A stretch of 64,000 nt of DNA from Methanomassiliicoccaceae archaeon (GCA_963751645.1 CAVVVD010000007.1:12330-76329), one strand, 5' to 3'. Numbered from the stretch's first letter, positions 39,679 to 55,719 are shown. Program-made: numbers and translations. The notes: generated from the sequence alone by a model not told the origin.

Positions 39679-39752
39679 GGGTCCGTAGCTTAGTCCGGTG
39701 GAGCGTCAGGCTCATAACCCGATGGTCGTCGGTTCGAATCCGACCGGGCCCA
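39679..39752 (+). tRNA. tRNA with anticodon CAT (elongator Met or Ile2)
   Basis: Acceptor GGGTCCG/CGGGCCC (one G-U pair), D-arm 'GCTTAGTCCGGTGGAGC', anticodon loop 'CTCATAA', T-arm 'GTCGGTTCGAATCCGAC'. G1-C72 and a weak anticodon stem argue against the initiator. No encoded CCA. A T5 tract at 39755-39759 follows. Confidence 0.85.
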
Positions 39753-40026
39753 CATTTTTCAACCCATTCGAGATGCTGGAACCTCGAGGTCGATGAGGCT
39801 CTAGATATGAGCACAACCTCAGCGATTGACTGTGGAATTTCATAGTCTTTATTAGAAAGAAGCACTTGTGGTGAAAATTGATATTGAGCAAATGCTCGTA
39901 GGAAGAAAGGTAGGATTTATATGGGAGACGAAAGATGGAATTCACCATAACACGGTCCAGCTTGGGTCGTGTCGGTTCCCCCCTTGAATGCTGACCTTTA
40001 TCGAAACGTGATCGGTGACGCCCAGC

Positions 40027-43086: not shown

Positions 43087-44589
43087 GTGGCTATAGGATT
43101 TGGCGAAATATGGTCCATTGTTGAAATATACGTAGCGATTATCCTAACGTTCCTCGCCATCCTGGTGATAATCGTTGTGATATTCGTTCAGAAGAAAAGG
43201 CCCGAGGCCGTCCTTGTGTGGATCCTTGCCATCCTTTTGGCCGTATTTTTTTGGATCCTTTCCGCATTCATTTACCCGTTGATACTTTTCCTCCTATTCT
43301 ATGTCTACCTAGGGCGGGACCATCATAGAAAGAAGATGTTCCGCAACAAGGCGGAGGCTGACCGGGGCGTTTCCAACGCCCTAGGCAAGTCAATGGGTGG
43401 CCTTTTCGTCTCCGACCTGTCCAAACCTGGACTTGGGCCTAACGAATCGTTGGCGCGTATGCTGTTCACCTCCAACCAATCCTTCCTCACCAATGACAAC
43501 GAGGTGGTCTATTTCAACGAGGGGGCGCTTATTTTCGAGGACATGCTCAAGGAGATCATGGGAGCGAAGCGCTTCGTGCACATGGAGTTCTACATGATCC
43601 GCAACGATCCATTGGCCAAGGAGTTCGCCCAAGTCCTTGCGCAGAAGGCCAAGGAGGGTGTGGAGATCAAGCTTGTCATGGACGCTGCAGGGTGCCACAA
43701 GCTTCCTAGGAAGTTCTTCAAGGAGCTGACGGATGCAGGAGGCAAGACCGTCCTGTTCCTCCCATCGCTCTTCGGAGCCTTGAACATCGGCATCAACAAC
43801 CGCAACCATCGTAAGCTATTCGTCGTGGACGGGGACACCGCCTACATGGGTGGTACGAACATAGGTGTGGAATACCGCGGAGAGGGGCCGCTCGGCTATT
43901 GGCGCGATGACATGGTACGCATCCGCGGCAGTGGCGCCATCAGTGTTGAGAAGCGCTTTGTCCTAGATTGGAACTTCGCCGCCAAGGACCATTTGAAGGT
44001 TGAGGATTATGCCCCGACCAGGCGTGGCAGTGGCAAGGCCAGTTTGCAGATCGTCTCCGGGGGACCGGACAAGGTCTCTCGACAGATCGAGGAGCAATAT
44101 GTGAAGATGATCACCACCGCTGAGAAGTATGTGTACATCCAGACGCCTTACTTCGTTCCGAGCGAGGCGGTGATCGCCGCCTTGGTGGCCGCGGCCAAGT
44201 CTGGGGTGGACGTACGGGTCATGATGCCCTCCAAGCCCGATCACGTGTTCATCTACTGGGCCTCGTTGTACAATGCGGGAGACATGCTACGCAGCAACGT
44301 ACGAATCCACCAGTTCATGAAGGAAGGTTTCATCCACGCCAAGGTCCTGGTCATCGACGACCAGGTGGCATCGGTCGGTAGTGCAAACTTTGACCGCCGC
44401 AGCTTGGAACTGAACTTCGAGAGCAACGCCGTCGTCTATGACGAGGATATCGCCAAGATGGTAAAGGCCGCCTACCTTGACGATGTCGAACATCGGTGCA
44501 CTGAGCTTACCGCGGAAAAGTACTCAACGCGCTCATGGGTGGTCAAGGCCAAGGAGGACATATCCAGACTCTACGGCCCAGTCGCTTAA
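43087..44589 (+). CDS. cls: cardiolipin synthase (PLD superfamily)
   Basis: Two N-terminal TM helices and two HKD motifs, 'NHRKLFVVDG' and 'IHAKVLVIDD'. GTG start. Confidence 0.85.
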   Translation: MAIGFGEIWSIVEIYVAIILTFLAILVIIVVIFVQKKRPEAVLVWILAILLAVFFWILSAFIYPLILFLLFYVYLGRDHHRKKMFRNKAEADRGVSNALGKSMGGLFVSDLSKPGLGPNESLARMLFTSNQSFLTNDNEVVYFNEGALIFEDMLKEIMGAKRFVHMEFYMIRNDPLAKEFAQVLAQKAKEGVEIKLVMDAAGCHKLPRKFFKELTDAGGKTVLFLPSLFGALNIGINNRNHRKLFVVDGDTAYMGGTNIGVEYRGEGPLGYWRDDMVRIRGSGAISVEKRFVLDWNFAAKDHLKVEDYAPTRRGSGKASLQIVSGGPDKVSRQIEEQYVKMITTAEKYVYIQTPYFVPSEAVIAALVAAAKSGVDVRVMMPSKPDHVFIYWASLYNAGDMLRSNVRIHQFMKEGFIHAKVLVIDDQVASVGSANFDRRSLELNFESNAVVYDEDIAKMVKAAYLDDVEHRCTELTAEKYSTRSWVVKAKEDISRLYGPVA

Positions 44590-46250: not shown

Positions 46251-47198
46251 TTATTTATGCGATCCCCCAATCCACGTTGCATCCTTTGAAATCCTTTTGA
46301 GTTCCTCCTCGCCTATTCTCGGAGCATAAAAACCATATTTTGTTCCGATGTTGCATTCCTCGTAGGCGATCTTGAAACATCCATTGTCCCCCCAATCGGG
46401 ACCCCAACTATTCTTGACGATCCAATACCCTCCCTCTTCAATATCGTTGAATCCGATAATACAAACCGCATGGTCATCAGGACTACTATCGATCATATAT
46501 GTGGGACCGTCCGGACCGTATACCAGAATTTTTTCTTTTGAGTGATGATAGACCCTTGTGCTCGAACTGTAATTGTCCAGGTCCGCAAAGACTTCCATTC
46601 CTGTGACAAGGGGCCCTATGCCCATCAACCAGCTCTTTGCATAGTCGGGATCGTTCGTCTTATCCCAACTCATTCTTACCGATAATCGATCGCGATTGGC
46701 ACACGGGTTTTCGAGCTCGACCTTATCTTTCCATGGGTAGCAAGATTCCAGACAGACGCCCTCCTTGGCGCTCCTTTCCATCAAGGTTGCGAAGTCCCAA
46801 CCCGTTTCCGATCTCTTCTTCTTGAGCATGCTGTCCTTTTCCCAGAACATAAGGTCCGCTTCGGAGAGATCTGTAGTACCTACCTTTTCCCTAACATCCT
46901 TCCTCATCAGAATCGTGGACTCCATTGCCGCCACCATGGCAAATGGAACGCAGGCATGATGCCCTTTCTGGTCCTTACAGGGCGTGATGATTTCGCCATC
47001 TTTCTGTCGCCAGTCCCAGAATGGCCTTGCCGCCCCAGGACTCGTTTGAGGATGAAGTGTTCGCCATTCCTTCGCCTCTTGATATTTTTTAAGATTGGCT
47101 TCCTTCTCTGAGTTACTGATAAGCAACCCGACCGTCTTACCTGGCATATTTTGGCCTCTCCCTGAAATCAACCGTTCGGGATAGGGCTTCTTCTTCAT
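46251..47198 (-). CDS. papain-family (C1A) cysteine peptidase, cytoplasmic (no signal peptide)
   Basis: 'FWDWRQKDGEIITPCKDQKGHHACVPFA' (Gln-x5-Cys oxyanion/nucleophile), 'DHAVCIIGF' (His) and 'YWIVKNSWGPDWGDNGCFKI' (Asn-Ser-Trp). The N-terminus is hydrophilic and Lys-rich. Confidence 0.85.
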   Translation of the reverse strand: MKKKPYPERLISGRGQNMPGKTVGLLISNSEKEANLKKYQEAKEWRTLHPQTSPGAARPFWDWRQKDGEIITPCKDQKGHHACVPFAMVAAMESTILMRKDVREKVGTTDLSEADLMFWEKDSMLKKKRSETGWDFATLMERSAKEGVCLESCYPWKDKVELENPCANRDRLSVRMSWDKTNDPDYAKSWLMGIGPLVTGMEVFADLDNYSSSTRVYHHSKEKILVYGPDGPTYMIDSSPDDHAVCIIGFNDIEEGGYWIVKNSWGPDWGDNGCFKIAYEECNIGTKYGFYAPRIGEEELKRISKDATWIGGSHK

Positions 47199-47219
47199 CC
47201 TATCCCGTTATTGGGTTTC

Positions 47220-47756
47220 CTATGGCAACGTCCCTGAACCAGGCGGCCCTATGTCCTCTATAACGTCCTCTTTAGGCGGTTCCTGTCTCATCACCGTGGT
47301 CAATAGTAACGATTTCCATATTTCCGTCGTCTCTGTCGGTGCGAGGTCTACTGTTTTGAAAATCGATTGGAACTTCCTCCATGTCTCTGAGTATGCGTAT
47401 TTGTCCCAATCGATATCAAGGTCATCGATGCCTTTCGTTCCAATTGCAATCAAGGCATCTGCGGTTAACCTGGTCATTCCATAAACCGTCATCAGCTCCG
47501 CAATGACTTTTTCCCTCCTGGCATCGGATTGCCTCTTGGCCATAATAGCGAGGCGAAGAGCGTTTTGAATAACATGACATTTCTCAATGTCCAGTTCCTG
47601 TCCGTCTTCGATCTTTTTGCAGATGTATTCATTGTAATATTCCAAGGCGGTCTTATCCTTCTTAATGTCGTTCAAAGATTCGATGCCCAGTCCCTTAAGG
47701 GCCTCGATGCCCTCGGGAACGAGGAACAAGATTTTGTTTAATTTAATTGTCGGCAT
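47220..47756 (-). CDS. hypothetical protein with two helix-hairpin-helix-like motifs
   Basis: 178 aa. 'EGIEALKGLGIESLNDI' and 'TADALIAIGTKGIDDLDI'. Its stop lies 21 nt upstream of the peptidase start. No family recognised. Confidence 0.4.
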   Translation of the reverse strand: MPTIKLNKILFLVPEGIEALKGLGIESLNDIKKDKTALEYYNEYICKKIEDGQELDIEKCHVIQNALRLAIMAKRQSDARREKVIAELMTVYGMTRLTADALIAIGTKGIDDLDIDWDKYAYSETWRKFQSIFKTVDLAPTETTEIWKSLLLTTVMRQEPPKEDVIEDIGPPGSGTLP

Positions 47757-47924
47757 TTCCCCACATCCTGGTCCTAATCATCAGATCAAGGACAATCCCA
47801 TGATTCCCCCCACGAATAATTAACTTTTACGACAACGATTTGATTCCCCATTTTTTATTAATGATTGTAATGAAATAATGAATAATGTTAGATATTGACG
47901 ATCGAACATTGCGAGCGAGATTTA

Positions 47925-50354
47925 CTAATTGGCCTTCATTCGATTGCGTAGATGATCGGCCCTCTCGATCTGCTCATCAGACATTGATGGTTTTCCCATC
48001 TCGTTTAGGAGCTGGCCGAACCATTTCCTCACCATGATCTCATACATCGTTCCCAGTTGTACGCCCTGCAGGGCCTCGATGGCCATATAGAACCTGATTA
48101 TCGCTGCGGTGAGGTCATCGCTCCTGGCCAGAAGCTCGGCTTCGACCGCTAAGGTCAGCCCATTGAGCGGTGTCTTCAGTAGGGCGTTCTGGACCCCGAG
48201 CCCTTCCTTGATGTTAATGAAGAGCTCCTCGGCCGCCCTCAGCTTGTCTAGTTCGATAAGATTATGGACCATGAATATCTGGATTAGATCGATAAGATTC
48301 TTGTTTTCACTCGCCATGGCCGCCTCTAATGCTGCCTCGACATACATGGACGCTCCTTCATGGTCGTCCTCTGATTCCTTAAGGAATGAAAGGTAGAGAT
48401 GGACCCAGGCAATGTAATAGCTATAGGAAAGGACCCGGGCTTTTTCGAGGCTAATCAAATAGCTTTGTTTCGCATCAGGGAGGTCGTCAAGGCAGTATTG
48501 CGCGATGCCTTTGAACATCCATGAGATCACCTCGGCCAATGGCCAGGGGTGTTCTTCGAATAGTCCCAATGCTTTGTCCAATTTCACTAGGGCTTCGTGC
48601 GGATGGCCAGTGGCCAAGCGTGTGAACCCCCCTTCCTGTAGCTCCCATGCCAGCCTCTGGGGCTCGTTCAACCGATCGAATATGGTCTCGGACCGTTCCA
48701 TCAGTTCCCCAGCTTTCTCAAAGTCCCCGATGTAGAGGCTTTGCATCGCCATTTCGTGTAGGATCTCCCCTTCATCGAACTTGTCGATGTCTGACAATGA
48801 AAGAGCTGTTCGCAAATACTCTGAATGTCTCTCGATCGAGCCCTTACCTAAACGATTTGGGACCCAACATTCGGCACATTTCCGTAAAATTCTTCCTTTT
48901 CGCTTTTCTGAACCGGCCTTTTCAATGAGCGGTTCAAAAATTGAGAAGGCGGACTCATTGTCTCCCATTTCGAAATAGGCATCCGCCAGCGATTCAAGCA
49001 AATTAAGATCCTCATCACTATTTTTCTGCAAAGGGCTTAGATGATCTATGGCCCTATGATAGAACATCACCGCCTCTGGGTAGGAAAAACGTTGAAAACA
49101 ATATTCCCCCGCCTTTGCCGAATATTCCGTGCACTTTTCAGGTATCTCTCCCCTGCAGAAGTGCAATGAGAGCTTTGAGAAATCGACCGGCGAGGCCCCC
49201 TTACGCTCAATGATGTCACCGATGGTCTGATGGAGGGATATCCTGTTCTCCTTAGTTATCGAGGAGTAGATCGACCATTGGATAAGCTCGTGGAGGAACT
49301 GATAGTGGTCCCCCATTTTCCTGATCAGCTGGTCCTCTTCGTCCATTTTGATCAGGAATCGATCGAGTTCACCCAAATCCAGGTCCAATATTTCTGACAA
49401 AACCATGATATCGAACTGATCCCCTATGACCGAGGCCGCATTGAGAATGTATCGCTCCGCCTGATCCAGTAAGATCAGACGATTCTCGATGACCTCGTTT
49501 AGGGAAGATGGGATGCCATCTTCAGTTAACATGACAAGTCCATGATGCTCCCTCTTTTCACCAGATATCGAGTCCGTTATCCATTTTGTGAGCTCGATGA
49601 CGAAGAGTGGGTTACCTCCGGTCGCTTTTATTATGGCGTCGGACGAACCCTGATTGCACTGACCTTTAGCCACATCCTCCGATAGCCTAATGACCTCTTT
49701 ATCGGAAAGATAGGGCAAGGAGACCTCCCTCAGGTTAGTGGGTTTGTTGACGTTCTTCAGAAAGGTGGTAAATGGAATGTTGCTACGGGATTTGGTAGGT
49801 CTGACCTCCTCGGGACGAAATGTCAGTAAGATTATGGTGCGCGTACGCCAGAGATGCTTTGTAAGAAAGTCCAACAATTCCACACTGGCGGAATCTGCCC
49901 AGTGGAAATCCTCAAGCCAGATCAACAATGGTACCCTCATGGACGTCGATTCTATGGCGTTGATGGTCCCCAGCATCACCATTTCCTTCAGAGCCCCTTT
50001 TTCGAAGGGGTCATCTATTTTCGATAATAGGTCTTGGAATTGCCTAGAAGTGATGTTGGATGGGCGTTCTTCCGCTTCCCTATCGTTGGTCAAATCCCCA
50101 TCCATATCGACAAGGCAATGGAATGCCTCGATGAATGAGACGAGGGGGCTTGGGTGGTTGACATGGCACGACCCTTTACAACATAGGAACCCCGACCTCT
50201 CCGCCATCTTACAATATTCCAAGCACAACCTAGTCTTACCAAGACCCGCCTCGCCTTCGATCGTCACTATGGAACCATGACCGTGGAGAGCCTCGCCAAG
50301 GTAAGATTGGAACCGTTCCAATTCCCGTCTGCGTCCGATGAACTTCGGGTCCAT
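47925..50354 (-). CDS. STAND-class P-loop NTPase (AAA_16-type) with C-terminal TPR-like repeats, no recognisable effector or HTH
   Basis: Walker A 'IEGEAGLGKTRL', Walker B 'PLLIWLEDFHWAD', 'GGNPLFVIEL' (the arm typical of AAA_16/LAL-type ATPases), then about 450 aa of TPR-like helical repeats ('LADAYFEMGDNESAFSIFEPLIEKA' and others). Confidence 0.8.
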   Translation of the reverse strand: MDPKFIGRRRELERFQSYLGEALHGHGSIVTIEGEAGLGKTRLCLEYCKMAERSGFLCCKGSCHVNHPSPLVSFIEAFHCLVDMDGDLTNDREAEERPSNITSRQFQDLLSKIDDPFEKGALKEMVMLGTINAIESTSMRVPLLIWLEDFHWADSASVELLDFLTKHLWRTRTIILLTFRPEEVRPTKSRSNIPFTTFLKNVNKPTNLREVSLPYLSDKEVIRLSEDVAKGQCNQGSSDAIIKATGGNPLFVIELTKWITDSISGEKREHHGLVMLTEDGIPSSLNEVIENRLILLDQAERYILNAASVIGDQFDIMVLSEILDLDLGELDRFLIKMDEEDQLIRKMGDHYQFLHELIQWSIYSSITKENRISLHQTIGDIIERKGASPVDFSKLSLHFCRGEIPEKCTEYSAKAGEYCFQRFSYPEAVMFYHRAIDHLSPLQKNSDEDLNLLESLADAYFEMGDNESAFSIFEPLIEKAGSEKRKGRILRKCAECWVPNRLGKGSIERHSEYLRTALSLSDIDKFDEGEILHEMAMQSLYIGDFEKAGELMERSETIFDRLNEPQRLAWELQEGGFTRLATGHPHEALVKLDKALGLFEEHPWPLAEVISWMFKGIAQYCLDDLPDAKQSYLISLEKARVLSYSYYIAWVHLYLSFLKESEDDHEGASMYVEAALEAAMASENKNLIDLIQIFMVHNLIELDKLRAAEELFINIKEGLGVQNALLKTPLNGLTLAVEAELLARSDDLTAAIIRFYMAIEALQGVQLGTMYEIMVRKWFGQLLNEMGKPSMSDEQIERADHLRNRMKAN

Positions 50355-50571: not shown

Positions 50572-51430
50572 TCATTGTTGACTATGGGCCCTCAGATTTG
50601 ACTGGAATGACCTCGCCACCAATGGTATCGGTGGTACGTTCAGCTGCATCCGATCAATGACGCGTCGGCATAAATCATCGATGGAAATCCTAGGTTCCTG
50701 GGATGCTATCTCCGCGACAGTTGTGTCAATACGTCTCAGATATTCCAGACCGCCTTCGATCATGCTACCGACCTCCTCGCCTTTCCTGGGGATATCCCAA
50801 GACCCGAGGAGGACGTCGACACCATCTATCGCCAGCAATCTTTCGAGCGACCTCATCGAGGCCTTGGCATCGTCATAGACCGGCATCTCTCCGACAAGGG
50901 GAACTGCGTCCCCGGTGATGAGCACTCCTTCCTCCCTCGACAGCAAGGAGATGGAGCCAGTCGAATGACCAGGGGTGTGGAACACCTCTAGTATCGTTCC
51001 TACCACCCAGGTCCACCTTGTCCCCTTCCTTGAGGGCACGGTCCACCTCGACCGATCCCCCCACCAGATTGTGGAACCCCGGCACTGGACGTTCTGCGAA
51101 CTGGACATCGACATCCTCGAGCCAGCCTACCTCTGCCTCATGGATCAGCACTTGGCAATGGCATTTGGCTTTTATCGCCTTCGTGGAGCCGACATGGTCC
51201 GGGTGAGCATGGGTCTGGATGATGGTGGTGATCTCCTCCGGATGGCGCCCCGCGCTCCTGATCAGATCGAATATCATGTCCTCGGTGCCGGCCACCCCGG
51301 TGTCGATCAGGCAGATCTCCTCTCCTAAGATGACATAGCAATAGACGAACCGGTCCAGGGACAGGGACGGACTCAACGGGACCTTGAATGGGACAAGTAA
51401 CGTATGGACATGATCGGTGATGTGCATCAC
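50572..51430 (-). pseudogene. MBL-fold metallo-hydrolase, one frame break
   Basis: ORF 50873..51430 has 'IQTHAHPDHVG' (HxHxDH). The continuation 'TILEVFHTPGHSTGSISLL...ITGDAV' is in ORF 50572..51114. The junction is at the 3-nt G/C run 51006-51008. Confidence 0.7.
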
Positions 51431-51567: not shown

Positions 51568-54500
51568 TCAACCTTTTCTTCGACGGATGATGATGAAGGC
51601 GGCGATCGCCACGATCGCTAGCACACCCACCGCTGCACCGATGAGCAGCCAATCGATGCCAGCGGAGGACGAGTCCATGGTCAGGTCCCCAAGGGGTAGG
51701 TCTCCGGTCACATCGATGGGCGTGTTCTTGTCATCCATTCCAGAGGCGGTGATGGTCAAGTTATATTTGCCAGGCGGCAGGGTGAGGGCGAACTCACCCT
51801 GGAAGTTGGTGTTCGCGGTATAGCTCCCCGCGCGGACGTAGGCCCCTTCTATCGGATCGCCGTCGGAATCCACCACCCTCCCGGTGACGACCCCGCTTGA
51901 TACCGTGCTGAAGGACCAGGAGAAGTTGCCAATGCGATTCCCCGCCTGGTCCAGACCACTCTGGGCCGATATCACATAGGTCTGTCCCATCGTCAACATC
52001 ATTGTGACGTTGTAGGTGCGATCAGATACAGTATATGGTCGTTCCACACCGTTGACGAGGATGACCAATGTACCCGACTGGATCGCCTCGTTGTAGGTGA
52101 TGGATATCACGTCGTTCGTATGGGCGGCGGTCCCGTTCGGACTGTAACTGGTTACCGCAGGTGCTTCGTTGTCCAACGTGAAGTTCAGCGAGGCAGTGGT
52201 CTCCCAACCCGCAAAATCTGTCGCATGTAGAATAAAATGCACCGGACCATCTGCGAGCTGCAGGGAGACGTTATCAGACGGGTAGTGGAATGTGACCCAG
52301 GCGACTCCATCCAAACTGTAATTCAACCACCTTATGCCCGAGATGTCGGTCACGTCATAGAATATCTCCACCGTGTCGTTGTTTATCGAGGAACCCTCGA
52401 TGGGGTAAACGAAGACCACCTTGGGACCTTTGAGGTCCATGCTGAAATTGACCCAGGCATGCCCTATGTTCCCTGACTTATCATAGCCCCGGACCGATAC
52501 TGAGTGCTGACCATCTGTCAGTTCGAGGACGAACCACTGCTCCAACCCTGTGCCCTGCCATGGCCCACCGTCTACCTGGACCTCGAAACGGTCCAGATCT
52601 GAGAGGAGATCATCAGTGGTCCAGGTCATGTTCAGCTCGGGCATGGTGATGATCTGATTCTCCACCGGGTCGGTGATTTCGATGGATGGCCCGGAAACGT
52701 CAACGATCACGACCACAGATGCGGTGCTGTTCCGTCCGGTGTGATCGACCGCCATGACACGGAGGGTGTGCTCCCCCGATGTGAGACCATCGATCTGCCA
52801 GGAGAGATCAGTGCCCCGATCGTTCCATGCGCCGGAGTCCAATTGGACCTCATAACGGTCTATTCCGAAGCCAGTGTCCGTTCCGGTCCATTCCAGCAGG
52901 ACCGACCCGCCTATGACATTCGTGTTATTGCCAGGGCTATCGATGACCACGGTTGGGGCGAACAGGTCCACCGCGAAGCTGATACTGTCTGAGGTTGCGT
53001 TCCCAAGCTTGTCGGTTGCTTGAACGATGACGATGTGTGCACCCTCCGTCAGACCGATGATGTCGTAACTTGTGGCAGTGCTGACATTGATCCATGGACC
53101 GCCATCGACCCTGATGTCACAGTGGTCCAGACCGACACCGTCGTCGTTGACGGTCCAGACGACCGTCACCGAGCTCGTGTCGATGAGACTGCCCGATACC
53201 GGGTCGGTGATTTCGATGGATGGCCCGGAAACGTCAACGATCACGACCACAGATGCGGTGCTGTTCCGTCCGGTGTGATCGACCGCCATGACACGGAGGG
53301 TGTGCTCCCCCGATGTGAGACCATCGATCTGCCAGGAGAGATCAGTGCCCCGATCGTTCCATGCGCCGGAGTCCAATTGGACCTCATAACGGTCTATGCC
53401 GAAGCCAGTGTCCGTTCCGGTCCATTCCAGCAGGACCGACCCGCCTATGACATTCGTGTTATTGCCAGGGCTATCGATGACCACGGTTGGGGCGAACAGG
53501 TCCACCGCGAAGCTGATACTGTCTGAGGTTGCGTTCCCAAGCTTGTCGGTTGCTTGAACGATGACGATATGTGCGCCCTCCGTCAGACCGATGATGTCGT
53601 AACTTGTGGCAGTGCTGACATTGATCCATGGACCGCCATCGACCCTGATGTCACAGTGGTCCAGACCGACACCGTCGTCGTTGACGGTCCAGACGACCGT
53701 CACCGAGCTCGTGTCGATGAGACTGCCCGATACCGGGTCGGTGATGATGACCTCGGGACCTATCGAATCGAGGAAGATGTTCATGTAATAGATGCGCCAA
53801 TTGCCAGCGGTATCCGTGGCGTTGATCCAGACCTGATTCCATCCCTGAGTCATGGCAGGGGTTGTGAATGTGGTCAGCGTCGTTGTTGTCCAGGGATGAT
53901 CGTTCAAACGGACCTTATAATCGAGCACGGAAGTGTAGGCATCGGTACCGGTCCAGCTGACCACGGCGGTGGCCTGGTCTGTTGCCGAGTTGTTTACTGG
54001 GGATTGGAAGGTAACCGATGGCGGGCTCCGATCGACCTTGAATGTATGTGAAATGACCGTGTATAGACCTACACCGTCGGTGGCATTCACCTGGATCACA
54101 TGGGTACCCTCTGAGATCGGTGTCCAATGATAGTTGGTGTCCATGCCCACGTTCAGCCAGGAGGAGCTGTCGAAGCTTAGGCTGTACCCGACTAGGCCAG
54201 AACCATTGTCCCAGCCTTCCCAGGACACATACACATCGGCAGTGTTGAGGACCTCTTGGTCATGGGGGGTCAAGAGGTGGAGGACCGGACTTTCGGAATC
54301 CGCATTTGTGAGGGGGGCCTTGTCCTCAGCCCCTCCCTCGAGGATGTAGGGGTCGTCCACGATGCCGTCGTGATCGGCATCTGGTAGGCGCCAGTCCGAC
54401 CACATATTACCGTGGTAGTTCAGGGTGCCACTGTAGTTCCAATGATTGTTGACGATCGAGGTGTCCTTTGCCTGCAGATGGAGGGGGTCATAAGTTGCAT

Positions 54501-55719
54501 CGGCGCCGTTATTGTCTGCCAGTGTGTTATCATAGACGGAGATGCCCACGCAGGTGCCCAATGATATGCCGAACAATGAGTTCCCGCCGATCTGATTTCC
54601 CGTAAGGGTCCCTCCGGTGCTGTTGAAAATGTAGATGCCGTTGTTGTTGTCAGAGATGGTGTTGTTGGAGATGGTACAATCCCCGGACGTCGTCACCCGT
54701 AACCCATCCCCCGCCACCCCGAGGATCTGATTGCCCCTGACAAGTGTCTGGGGGCTGTTCAATACGATGATACCGTGCAGGGCATTCCCATAGACAAGGT
54801 TGGTGGTGACATTTGTCGATGGGCATCCGGAAACATAGATCCCATTATTGTCATTCAGGCCCACCTCGTTGCTATCGACATTGCAACGATCCGAGCCATC
54901 ACTGATTACGATGGCGTTCTCATTGCTATAGGTGATGTTGTTCCCGGTGACATTCTCGTAATCGGAGAGCCAGAGCCAAATTCCATTATCGCACGCTGTG
55001 ATTTTATTGTCCGAGAGGACGTCAAAGGAGGATGACTGAGAATAGATTCCATAATTGAGGCAACCAGTGAACCGGTTCCCTTTCACCTCGACCTGGGAGC
55101 TGGAAGCGATCGATACCCCGTTCTCATTCCTATAGAGGTCGCAATTCGTTACCGAGCATCGATCCGAGGAGAAGAACCTGATGCCATCGATTGTGTTGTT
55201 GGAGGAGTCGGTATCCGATACCGTGATGTCCTCACAGTCGCGGGCGTACAGACCGTTCCCCCCGTTGTTATGGAGTTGATCGTTCTGGATCGTGATGTTC
55301 TTGCATTCAGTGAGCCCGATCCCATCGAATGTGTCGTAGATGTCGCAACCCTCGATCGTCGCATTCTCAACATTACCTAGGTAAATTCCATCACCTGAAT
55401 CGATGAAACTGCCGTCCCCAGTGTTGTTGACCGAGCAGTTCTTGATGACGATGTGCAGTGTTGTGTTCTTGATGTTTATGCCGTTGCTTGCCCCCAGGGC
55501 ATCGATGTCATAGTTCTCTATCAAGATGGGATCCCCTGCCGATCCAGACCCGGACCATCCTTCTATGGTGCGCATGGCCAGGAGTTCGGGGTCGCCATCG
55601 ATTATGATCGGCCCATGGGGAGCGGCCCTCACCTCCCCAGCCATCATCGCGAGGGTGAGAAATGACATTCCTAAGACGATCAAGACCAAGAACAACGCTT
55701 TGAACCGCATGGGACCCAC
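51568..55719 (-). CDS. giant cell-surface protein (signal peptide, PbH1/NosD-like beta-helix, about 9 Ig-like domains, CarboxypepD_reg-like domain, C-terminal TM anchor)
   Basis: 1383-aa intact ORF with signal 'FKALFLVLIVLGMSFLTLAMMAGEVRAA', many 'N.I..N...GI.L' repeats, repeated 90-aa or so 'W.G.D..SG...Y.V..D...W' modules, 'VVTGRVVDSDGDPIEGAYV' and the anchor 'WLLIGAAVGVLAIVAIAAFIIIRRRKG'. Confidence 0.85.
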   Translation of the reverse strand: MGPMRFKALFLVLIVLGMSFLTLAMMAGEVRAAPHGPIIIDGDPELLAMRTIEGWSGSGSAGDPILIENYDIDALGASNGINIKNTTLHIVIKNCSVNNTGDGSFIDSGDGIYLGNVENATIEGCDIYDTFDGIGLTECKNITIQNDQLHNNGGNGLYARDCEDITVSDTDSSNNTIDGIRFFSSDRCSVTNCDLYRNENGVSIASSSQVEVKGNRFTGCLNYGIYSQSSSFDVLSDNKITACDNGIWLWLSDYENVTGNNITYSNENAIVISDGSDRCNVDSNEVGLNDNNGIYVSGCPSTNVTTNLVYGNALHGIIVLNSPQTLVRGNQILGVAGDGLRVTTSGDCTISNNTISDNNNGIYIFNSTGGTLTGNQIGGNSLFGISLGTCVGISVYDNTLADNNGADATYDPLHLQAKDTSIVNNHWNYSGTLNYHGNMWSDWRLPDADHDGIVDDPYILEGGAEDKAPLTNADSESPVLHLLTPHDQEVLNTADVYVSWEGWDNGSGLVGYSLSFDSSSWLNVGMDTNYHWTPISEGTHVIQVNATDGVGLYTVISHTFKVDRSPPSVTFQSPVNNSATDQATAVVSWTGTDAYTSVLDYKVRLNDHPWTTTTLTTFTTPAMTQGWNQVWINATDTAGNWRIYYMNIFLDSIGPEVIITDPVSGSLIDTSSVTVVWTVNDDGVGLDHCDIRVDGGPWINVSTATSYDIIGLTEGAHIVIVQATDKLGNATSDSISFAVDLFAPTVVIDSPGNNTNVIGGSVLLEWTGTDTGFGIDRYEVQLDSGAWNDRGTDLSWQIDGLTSGEHTLRVMAVDHTGRNSTASVVVIVDVSGPSIEITDPVSGSLIDTSSVTVVWTVNDDGVGLDHCDIRVDGGPWINVSTATSYDIIGLTEGAHIVIVQATDKLGNATSDSISFAVDLFAPTVVIDSPGNNTNVIGGSVLLEWTGTDTGFGIDRYEVQLDSGAWNDRGTDLSWQIDGLTSGEHTLRVMAVDHTGRNSTASVVVIVDVSGPSIEITDPVENQIITMPELNMTWTTDDLLSDLDRFEVQVDGGPWQGTGLEQWFVLELTDGQHSVSVRGYDKSGNIGHAWVNFSMDLKGPKVVFVYPIEGSSINNDTVEIFYDVTDISGIRWLNYSLDGVAWVTFHYPSDNVSLQLADGPVHFILHATDFAGWETTASLNFTLDNEAPAVTSYSPNGTAAHTNDVISITYNEAIQSGTLVILVNGVERPYTVSDRTYNVTMMLTMGQTYVISAQSGLDQAGNRIGNFSWSFSTVSSGVVTGRVVDSDGDPIEGAYVRAGSYTANTNFQGEFALTLPPGKYNLTITASGMDDKNTPIDVTGDLPLGDLTMDSSSAGIDWLLIGAAVGVLAIVAIAAFIIIRRRKG
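52664..53745. repeat. 534-bp direct tandem duplication (2.03 copies) inside the giant surface-protein gene
   Basis: 52664-53197 and 53198-53731 differ at 3 of 534 positions (52864/53398, 53035/53569, 53041/53575). A 14-nt start of a third copy lies at 53732-53745. The period equals 178 codons, so the duplication is in frame. Confidence 0.95.

Follow-up and report, generated by a model that had tools for sequence, protein, structure and literature searches.

Sensors of the STAND (signal transduction ATPases having numerous domains) and NOD-like receptor (NLR) type that drive proteases hold a central place in innate immunity, in organisms from bacteria to animals. The prokaryotic STAND-protease cases known to us employ caspase-, trypsin- or subtilisin-like enzymes, which are mostly fused to the sensor, and almost all of them are bacterial. 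Here we analyzed a window of 64,000 nucleotides (nt) from a Methanomassiliicoccaceae archaeon (GCA_963751645.1, CAVVVD010000007.1:12330-76329; "the window" means this whole stretch), in which three neighboring genes encode a STAND ATPase, a small protein and an intracellular cysteine peptidase of the papain family (C1A). Our reading, to which we give a probability of about 0.5, is that this trio constitutes a three-component, STAND-gated intracellular proteolytic switch of a few uncultured archaea.

In the Avs2-trypsin-MBL (metallo-beta-lactamase) system, the activated protease cleaves the protein encoded by the neighboring gene. The likeness to the trio lies in a STAND NTPase with a tetratricopeptide repeat (TPR)-type sensor that controls a protease, or in the trio would do so. 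However, the trypsin-fold protease of Avs2 is fused to the N-terminus of the STAND protein, whereas the protease of the trio is a separate papain-fold C1A enzyme, accompanied by a novel small protein, in an archaeal host and with no defense context that we could see. Compared with Avs and bNACHT systems, the STAND protein of the trio has no fused cell-killing effector, belongs to no family in PADLOC (2023 version) and shows no enrichment of defense genes around it. In Craspase (type III-E TPR-CHAT with Csx30), and in gasdermins with their proteases, a sensor-activated protease is encoded beside the gene for its substrate or pro-effector, and in the trio an intracellular protease gene likewise adjoins the gene of a small to medium-sized protein. 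These systems differ in their sensors (CRISPR gRAMP or other), their protease folds (CHAT, trypsin, subtilisin) and their substrate families, and the small protein of the trio is helical and soluble, with no similarity to gasdermin or Csx30/Csx31 in Pfam, PADLOC, NCBIfam or fold searches.

The MalT/LAL/AfsR/PH0952 group shares with the STAND protein of the trio both the type of nucleotide-binding oligomerization domain (NOD) and the TPR sensor. PH0952 has an N-terminal ArsR-like helix-turn-helix (HTH) domain, and MalT and AfsR likewise carry DNA-binding domains (LuxR, SARP), whereas the trio protein has no fused DNA-binding domain and is linked to protease genes instead. The peptidase has the fold and the catalytic residues of the short prokaryotic C1A peptidases (30-40% identity), many of which lack an obvious signal peptide. 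Unlike the trio enzyme, these occurred without the small protein at 80 genome loci, and their Methanothrix forms are proteins of 528-670 amino acids (aa) with DUF4114 repeats. Typical C1A zymogens have an I29-type propeptide and a secretion signal, neither of which was detected in the trio peptidase.

The sensor ATPase, the peptidase and the small protein

The translation of the STAND gene contains the Walker A motif GEAGLGKTRL and the Walker B sequence LLIWLEDFHWAD; the Walker B stretch LLIWLED is present in the 809-aa protein. Pfam placed AAA_16 at residues 4-172 (1.8e-20), and TPR_12 (1.2e-12), TPR_MalT and TPR_2 from about residue 416. The NOD core consists of AAA_16 and, up to about residue 400, helical and winged-helix parts; the TPR sensor follows and reaches the C-terminus. 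A profile of the subfamily matched solved TPR proteins as far as residue 807, the best sequence matches being the TPR regions of PH0952 (6mfv) and AfsR (8k60). As AAA_16 begins at residue 4 and the TPR region runs to the end, there is no room for a further domain at either terminus. Motifs, Pfam domains and the extent of the TPR region all agree with the original prediction of an effector-less STAND protein with AAA_16 and TPR parts. No HTH (or other cryptic DNA-binding) domain and no enzymatic domain was found in it by Pfam, by NCBIfam, in the subfamily alignment or by comparison of the profile with solved proteins.

The window protein was aligned with its seven closest full-length relatives (769-838 aa, 26-29% identity). 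Invariant in all eight members were G34, G37, G39 and K40 of Walker A and D149 of Walker B, as well as R180, G247-N248-P249 (in GGNPLF) and H355. From their positions and the known architecture of STAND proteins we assign R180 as the putative sensor-1 arginine and H355 as the putative winged-helix histidine. In seven of the eight, the window protein included, the NOD comes first and TPR repeats form the end; in P0031 the part ahead of Walker A is missing. The hallmarks of the STAND superfamily are therefore all found, namely a P-loop NOD with Walker A and B, the sensor-1 Arg, GxP and winged-helix His (by position) and a C-terminal repeat sensor. The PADLOC models (Avs, NACHT and others) gave no match to the protein at E<=0.01, in a version that dates from 2023, before the STAND survey of about 90 families of 2026. 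At greater distance, the database has relatives with a fused adenylate cyclase, protein kinase, SARP, LuxR or GGDEF domain. The 809-aa protein is therefore a real, output-less and probably functional member of the MalT/PH0952/AfsR-like signaling STANDs.

The peptidase matched Peptidase_C1 (1.9e-25), and alignment to cathepsins C, H and L2 identified the catalytic set Q77, C83, H243 and N263. In the public gene calls the protein starts at Met18 (47147), giving 298 aa; purine-rich sequence lies upstream of both candidate ATGs. In the numbering of this shorter form, Q60, C66 and H226 were invariant and N246 was nearly invariant in the peptidase alignment; among the four trio peptidases, Gln, Cys and His are intact in all and Asn also in the three that were aligned. 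The AlphaFold2 (AF2) model (pLDDT 80, pTM 0.83) had its best Foldseek matches in pro-cathepsins H, X and B and in cathepsin C (E ~1e-14). No propeptide of the I29 type or other second family was detected by Pfam, and the model has a short helix ahead of the catalytic domain (residues 12-31 of the 298-aa form). Transmembrane (TM) segments and signal peptides were absent from the trio proteins, in which the maximum Kyte-Doolittle value over 19-residue windows was 1.15, against 2.41 for a membrane-protein control. As had been proposed, the peptidase is thus a C1A enzyme with its catalytic set intact and no signal for export, its N-terminus showing no hydrophobic stretch.

C1A peptidases are usually extracellular or lysosomal. 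The enzyme could accordingly be a secreted or nutritional peptidase with chance neighbors, and its nearest relatives, Methanothrix/Methanotrichaceae proteins without linkage to the other two genes, do carry repeats of a kind typical of surface proteins, DUF4114. We regard this as very improbable, as signal peptides and TM segments are absent from all trio peptidases, these enzymes consist of a single domain and lack DUF4114, and the linkage to a cytoplasmic ATPase is kept in four loci (see below). A further near relative is P0003, a metagenomic protein of 284 aa.

The Methanotrichaceae family (L016-L032) combines the C1 domain with up to three DUF4114 repeats and has no obvious signal peptide; it shares an N-terminal segment, W.AG.TS.S.L...LGL, with many bacterial C1 peptidases. 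No function for this family was found in the literature sources examined. Another relative, P0004 (L004-L006, L101), is a 462-aa C1 peptidase with a C-terminal extension that is 34% identical to the window enzyme. Its gene lies inside a virus-like structural block that includes a Peptidase_S78_2 prohead protease, and the contig is listed as viral in IMG/VR (UViG 3300036884_000190).

The small protein had been predicted to belong to no recognizable family, and this was borne out by Pfam, NCBIfam and PADLOC, none of which gave a match. A word-indexed search of 5.8 billion clusters returned only the protein itself. Using phmmer against 1.84 billion representatives, four significant matches besides the protein itself were obtained. 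Two of these, P0149 (233 aa) and P0150 (174 aa), are real relatives (E ~1e-5); P0148 and P0151 were discarded as repeat artifacts, being RTX/HCBP-repeat or unrelated proteins. The small proteins of L008-L011 are mutually homologous (BLASTP 1e-16), and hhalign joined their branch to that of the window protein end to end (93% probability, E 3e-7). The small protein thus belongs to a new, very rare family.

Conserved in the family are an NAL(R/Q)L helix, a motif resembling the helix-hairpin-helix (HhH), LM..G(M/V)(T/S)..A..L...G, a Trp-containing helix (W147) and a C-terminal tail, GP(P/G)..G..P, which is disordered in the model. The AF2 model is all-alpha with moderate to low confidence (pLDDT 65). 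Foldseek found nothing in the PDB below E=2.8, with XPF, RuvA, UvrC and BAF among the non-significant matches, and the profile matched HhH regions of EndoIII, NusA and Hel308 (a Ski2-type helicase) among PDB sequences at sub-threshold values (E 0.05-1.8). The label "HhH-like" in the original prediction is therefore supported as a resemblance of motifs and is no family assignment; there is no significant fold match. The adaptor role proposed at the same time is not established; the protein could equally inhibit the protease in trans or stand in for its pro-segment, or could be its substrate or pro-effector. Its GP..G..P tail, as modeled, is an obvious candidate for a docking motif, for a TPR groove or an active-site cleft.

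Linkage of the three genes at divergent loci

Conserved linkage of the three families had been set beforehand as the test of the prediction, and the trio was found in four independent loci in three orientations, with the STAND-small protein pair in a fifth, on a truncated contig (Table 1). On this contig, which ends there, no peptidase ORF (open reading frame) was present within the 308 nt downstream of the small gene. The proteins of the trio loci are mutually only ~21-36% identical, and the L096 group was reached solely through a phmmer search with the small protein, which is blind to context. In every trio locus the small gene lies 21-72 nt upstream of the peptidase gene on the same strand (together, the cassette), and in 5/5 loci it adjoins a STAND gene of the same subfamily.

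Table 1. Arrangement of the STAND, small-protein and peptidase genes at each locus.
Locus	STAND protein	Small protein and peptidase	Orientation
Window	809 aa	178-aa small protein, then Peptidase_C1 of 298/315 aa	All co-directional
L008/L009/L010 (P0032)	828 aa	176/189-aa protein without Pfam match, then Peptidase_C1 of 346 aa	STAND convergent with cassette
L011 (P0031)	785 aa	195-aa protein, then Peptidase_C1 of 370 aa	STAND convergent with cassette
L096/L097/L098 and JGI contig (P0149/P0155)	834 aa	233/247-aa small protein, Peptidase_C1 of 381 aa 35 nt downstream	STAND divergent
L099 (P0150), 1.1 kb	N-terminus only (KPPFVGRSAELR), off contig end	174-aa small protein	STAND divergent

The flanking genes differ between loci. 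In the window the trio is flanked by an MBL gene and a beta-helix surface protein gene on one side and by PHP and phospholipase D (PLD) genes on the other; elsewhere the flanks include MoxR/DUF58 (L008), rhodanese (L011 and the JGI contig) and RNA polymerase subunit N (the JGI contig). Shared synteny by descent was therefore rejected as the cause of the linkage. Adjacency kept through such divergence and rearrangement argues strongly for functional coupling. It does not establish the trio as one operon, since the STAND gene is convergent or divergent elsewhere and its spacer in the window holds promoter-like boxes.

Of the two spacers that had been described, the 168 nt between the STAND and small genes and the 21 nt between the small and peptidase genes were both confirmed, although the later peptidase start of the public gene calls makes the second gap 72 nt. 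Direct reading of the first spacer placed two A/T-rich boxes (Table 2) 60-90 nt upstream of the ATG of the small gene; these are candidate archaeal TATA elements for a separate transcript of the small and peptidase genes. The boxes, together with the convergent or divergent STAND genes elsewhere, suggest that the cassette has its own promoter and that the trio need not be one operon. A sigma-70 promoter and terminator scan gave background level only, with a bacterial model that is uninformative for an archaeal host.

Additional STAND paralogs of the same subfamily were observed beside the cassette. In L008-L010 a short paralog of 484 aa (L008 10413-11867) flanks it, and in L011 a tandem paralog (2-1600) lies next to it. 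This is reminiscent, by analogy, of paired sensor and helper NLRs. Genes with a rhodanese domain lie directly beside the trio in two loci (L011 6007-6696 and the JGI 3300075153 contig), adjoining the small gene in one and the STAND gene in the other; in the window the neighboring position is held by the MBL-fold gene. These rhodanese genes may be a remnant of synteny, or may hint at a function.

STAND relatives without the cassette were also examined. Directly downstream of the STAND gene in L007 is a gene for a 429-aa M4 thermolysin-like protein with a HEWTH motif and no signal peptide, and in L013 a 120-aa, signal-less retropepsin-like aspartic protease is encoded divergently upstream. No protease gene adjoins the STAND gene in L012, and L015 is truncated, so that its flanks were not usable. 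A protease neighbor is thus present at 6/7 independent STAND loci with usable flanks, in three catalytic classes. A DUF2769 gene on the opposite strand lies upstream of the STAND gene in two of these loci, directly in L012 (1391-1687) and several genes away in L007 (542-877). Genes for 225-aa proteins beside the STAND gene in L007 and L008 were considered as a fourth conserved component and rejected, as they have no mutual similarity.

These data bear on two other explanations of the trio. In the first, the small gene and the peptidase gene are a self-contained protease-inhibitor or protease-chaperone pair, in which the small protein would be a propeptide supplied in trans or an immunity protein, and the STAND gene is unrelated or loosely associated. 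The order and spacing from small gene to peptidase are indeed invariant while the orientation of the STAND gene varies, the trio peptidases have no Pfam-detectable propeptide and a short N-terminal helix only, and the tail of the small protein could fill the active-site cleft. We nevertheless hold this to be quite improbable, because the small gene has a STAND gene of the same subfamily beside it in 5/5 loci, at 21-29% identity and with differing flanks, and because STAND relatives without the cassette still adjoin proteases.

In the second, the trio is a split transcriptional regulator, with the small HhH-like protein as the DNA-binding subunit in trans of the STAND protein and the peptidase gene as the gene regulated. 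That the closest solved or characterized STAND relatives (PH0952, AfsR, MalT) are transcription factors would fit this, as would the HhH-like motifs of the small protein and the common intergenic region from which the STAND and small genes diverge in L096 and L099. However, there is no HTH at either end of any of the eight subfamily members, DNA binding by HhH motifs is not sequence-specific, and the match lies below threshold and has no support from the fold. It would also be unusual for such a subunit to be co-transcribed with the target rather than with the STAND gene, and three protease classes within one STAND subfamily are better explained by a proteolytic output. A split regulator is therefore unlikely.

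To assess how widespread the trio is, GTDB representatives, which do not include the genome of the window, were scanned with peptidase patterns. The 80 genome loci with related C1 peptidases contained no homolog of the small protein and no trio; a distant STAND-like ORF was seen only in L085, ~2.7 kb from its peptidase. In 80 IMG/VR viral loci, C1 peptidases were found but no STAND gene and no homolog of the small protein. Scanning metagenomes with patterns from the STAND TPR region gave no locus, and scanning with the small protein recovered two short contigs, both already known. All trio proteins fall in clusters of one to three members, from metagenomes only.

The composition of the trio is also atypical, in agreement with the low-GC island described in the original prediction. 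Its 4.1-kb stretch has a GC content of 0.483 against a window mean of 0.546 (standard deviation 0.028), the third lowest of 300 sliding windows, and GC at third codon positions (GC3) is 0.55-0.60 against 0.64-0.83 in the adjoining genes. The rarity, the low GC, the absence from the 80 peptidase loci and the extra STAND paralogs together make the system look accessory.

A possible STAND-gated switch and its purpose

An output-less sensor that adjoins a signal-less protease, a conserved linkage, and intact catalytic and NTPase motifs are the basis of the switch model, the simplest one to employ every component. At rest, the STAND protein would be an ADP-bound monomer, and the peptidase would be inactive or held from its targets. 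A ligand on the TPR sensor would bring about nucleotide exchange and oligomerization, and the oligomer would then engage the small protein, leading to release or recruitment of the peptidase. The likeliest contact would be the disordered C-terminal tail of the small protein, with either the TPR groove or the peptidase cleft. Finally, the peptidase would cut a single intracellular target or a few of them, and the small protein may be among these. Which way the signal runs, what the small protein does, what is cut and to what biological end are all inferred in this model. We further take the small protein to be a partner of the C1A version of the output alone and the cassette to be co-transcribed. 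Candidate purposes would be antiviral defense or abortive infection, or a stress-triggered proteolytic response.

Several observations weigh against the switch. The neighbors of the trio are of housekeeping type (PLD/cardiolipin-synthase-like, PHP, MBL, thermosome, rhodanese, RNA polymerase subunit N and MoxR/DUF58 over the loci), with no known defense genes adjoining it at any locus, and PADLOC gave no match for any trio protein. The wider AAA_16-TPR group is dominated by signaling and transcription outputs. The known loci number only four or five and are all metagenomic. By BLAST rank, the L008 and L011 peptidases pair with each other, the window enzyme is nearer to the unlinked Methanothrix C1-DUF4114 proteins and the L096 enzyme is very divergent. 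The trio peptidases thus form no tight clade, and may have been recruited more than once or have evolved fast.

As a special case of the switch, the trio may be an antiviral or abortive-infection NLR-like system, with the TPR region as sensor of a viral protein and the peptidase as the agent of cell death or arrest. For STAND sensors with a protease output, a part in defense is established. The trio itself is rare, patchy in distribution and low in GC, it has extra STAND paralogs, and protease classes have been swapped within the subfamily; the related C1 peptidase in a virus-like contig places viruses of these hosts in the same gene pool. However, no defense or mobile-element genes flank any locus: within ~10 kb of the trio in the window there are no defense genes, and there are none in the other loci (n=5 loci). 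There is no PADLOC match, the small protein was not found in IMG/VR, and by sequence the STAND protein lies outside the Avs- and NACHT-like groups, with PH0952 and AfsR as its nearest solved relatives. A defense or abortive-infection system, which the original prediction had favored, is therefore not established for this STAND of the MalT/PH0952/AfsR-like group; we consider it possible, with the odds against it. 

Doubtful, too, is a reading of the switch as an archaeal apoptosome-like cascade, in which an effector-less NLR-type sensor would oligomerize on a trigger and a dedicated small adaptor or pro-effector, of a new fold family and with its conserved C-terminal tail for docking, would switch on a cytoplasmic papain-fold protease, leading to cell arrest or death. 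If this were the case, which we would not expect, the sensor-adaptor-protease logic would have evolved independently of caspases.

Other features of the window and significance

The coordinates of the trio and of further features are collected in Table 2. The archaeal nature of the window is reflected in an encoded thermosome subunit, which scored above the NCBIfam cut-off. All three ORFs of the trio, which had been predicted to be co-directional on the minus strand, are present.

Table 2. Coordinates of the trio genes and of other features of the window.
Feature	Position	Strand	Description
STAND ATPase gene	47925-50354	minus	809 aa; effector-less STAND NTPase, AAA_16 core and TPR sensor
Small-protein gene	47220-47756	minus	178 aa, all-helical (model), new, very rare family
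C1A (papain-family) cysteine peptidase gene	46251-47198	minus	315 aa, single-domain
Spacer between STAND and small genes	47757-47924	minus	168 nt; A/T-rich boxes ATTAATAAAAAA, AAAAGTTAATTATT
MBL-fold gene	50572-51430	minus	Directly upstream of the STAND gene; split over two overlapping frames
MBL ORF	50873-51430	minus	Pfam profile positions 4-128
MBL ORF	50572-51114	minus	Pfam profile positions 120-191
Beta-helix/NosD/Big-domain surface protein	51568-55719	minus	1383 aa; contains both 300-nt repeats
Direct repeat, first copy	52664-52963		300 nt
Direct repeat, second copy	53198-53497		300 nt, 100% identical to first copy; 534 nt apart
PLD protein	43087-44589	plus	500 aa, two PLD domains, many PADLOC "DrmC" matches
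tRNA-Met	39679-39753		
3' T-arm segment of tRNA-Met	39733-39747		15 nt
Copy of T-arm segment	41950-41964		14/15 identical, 2.2 kb downstream

The MBL-fold gene, which has no counterpart at the other trio loci, resembles hydrolases of the B3 lactamase/lactonase type; its split reflects either a sequencing error or a pseudogene with a frameshift. It was considered as a pro-nuclease partner of the kind seen in trypsin-MBL and rejected, as it is frameshifted, of the B3 lactamase/lactonase-like type and missing from the other loci. The two repeats within the surface protein gene stem either from an artifact of assembly or from the duplication, very recently, of an internal domain. The tRNA-Met T-arm and its copy bracket radical-SAM and unknown genes, and the copy may have arisen by chance or be what is left of the attachment site of a small integrated element. 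The PLD gene was rejected as evidence of DISARM, since its architecture is of the cardiolipin-synthase type and the DrmC matches look generic.

As the original prediction had supposed, neither PADLOC nor the literature searched yielded a described system with such an arrangement. The 90-family STAND survey (2026) does not mention papain, cysteine proteases or peptidases, and no paper naming both Pfam families together was found in the literature searched.

If the switch reading is true, the STAND-protease repertoire would gain a protease fold and an accessory family that are both new to it, and the widespread but unstudied "short" prokaryotic C1A peptidases would be placed in a functional context for the first time. 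The trio would also be a compact three-gene system open to heterologous expression. Should its role not be immunity, it would be a rare example of ligand-gated, regulated proteolysis by an intracellular prokaryotic C1A enzyme.

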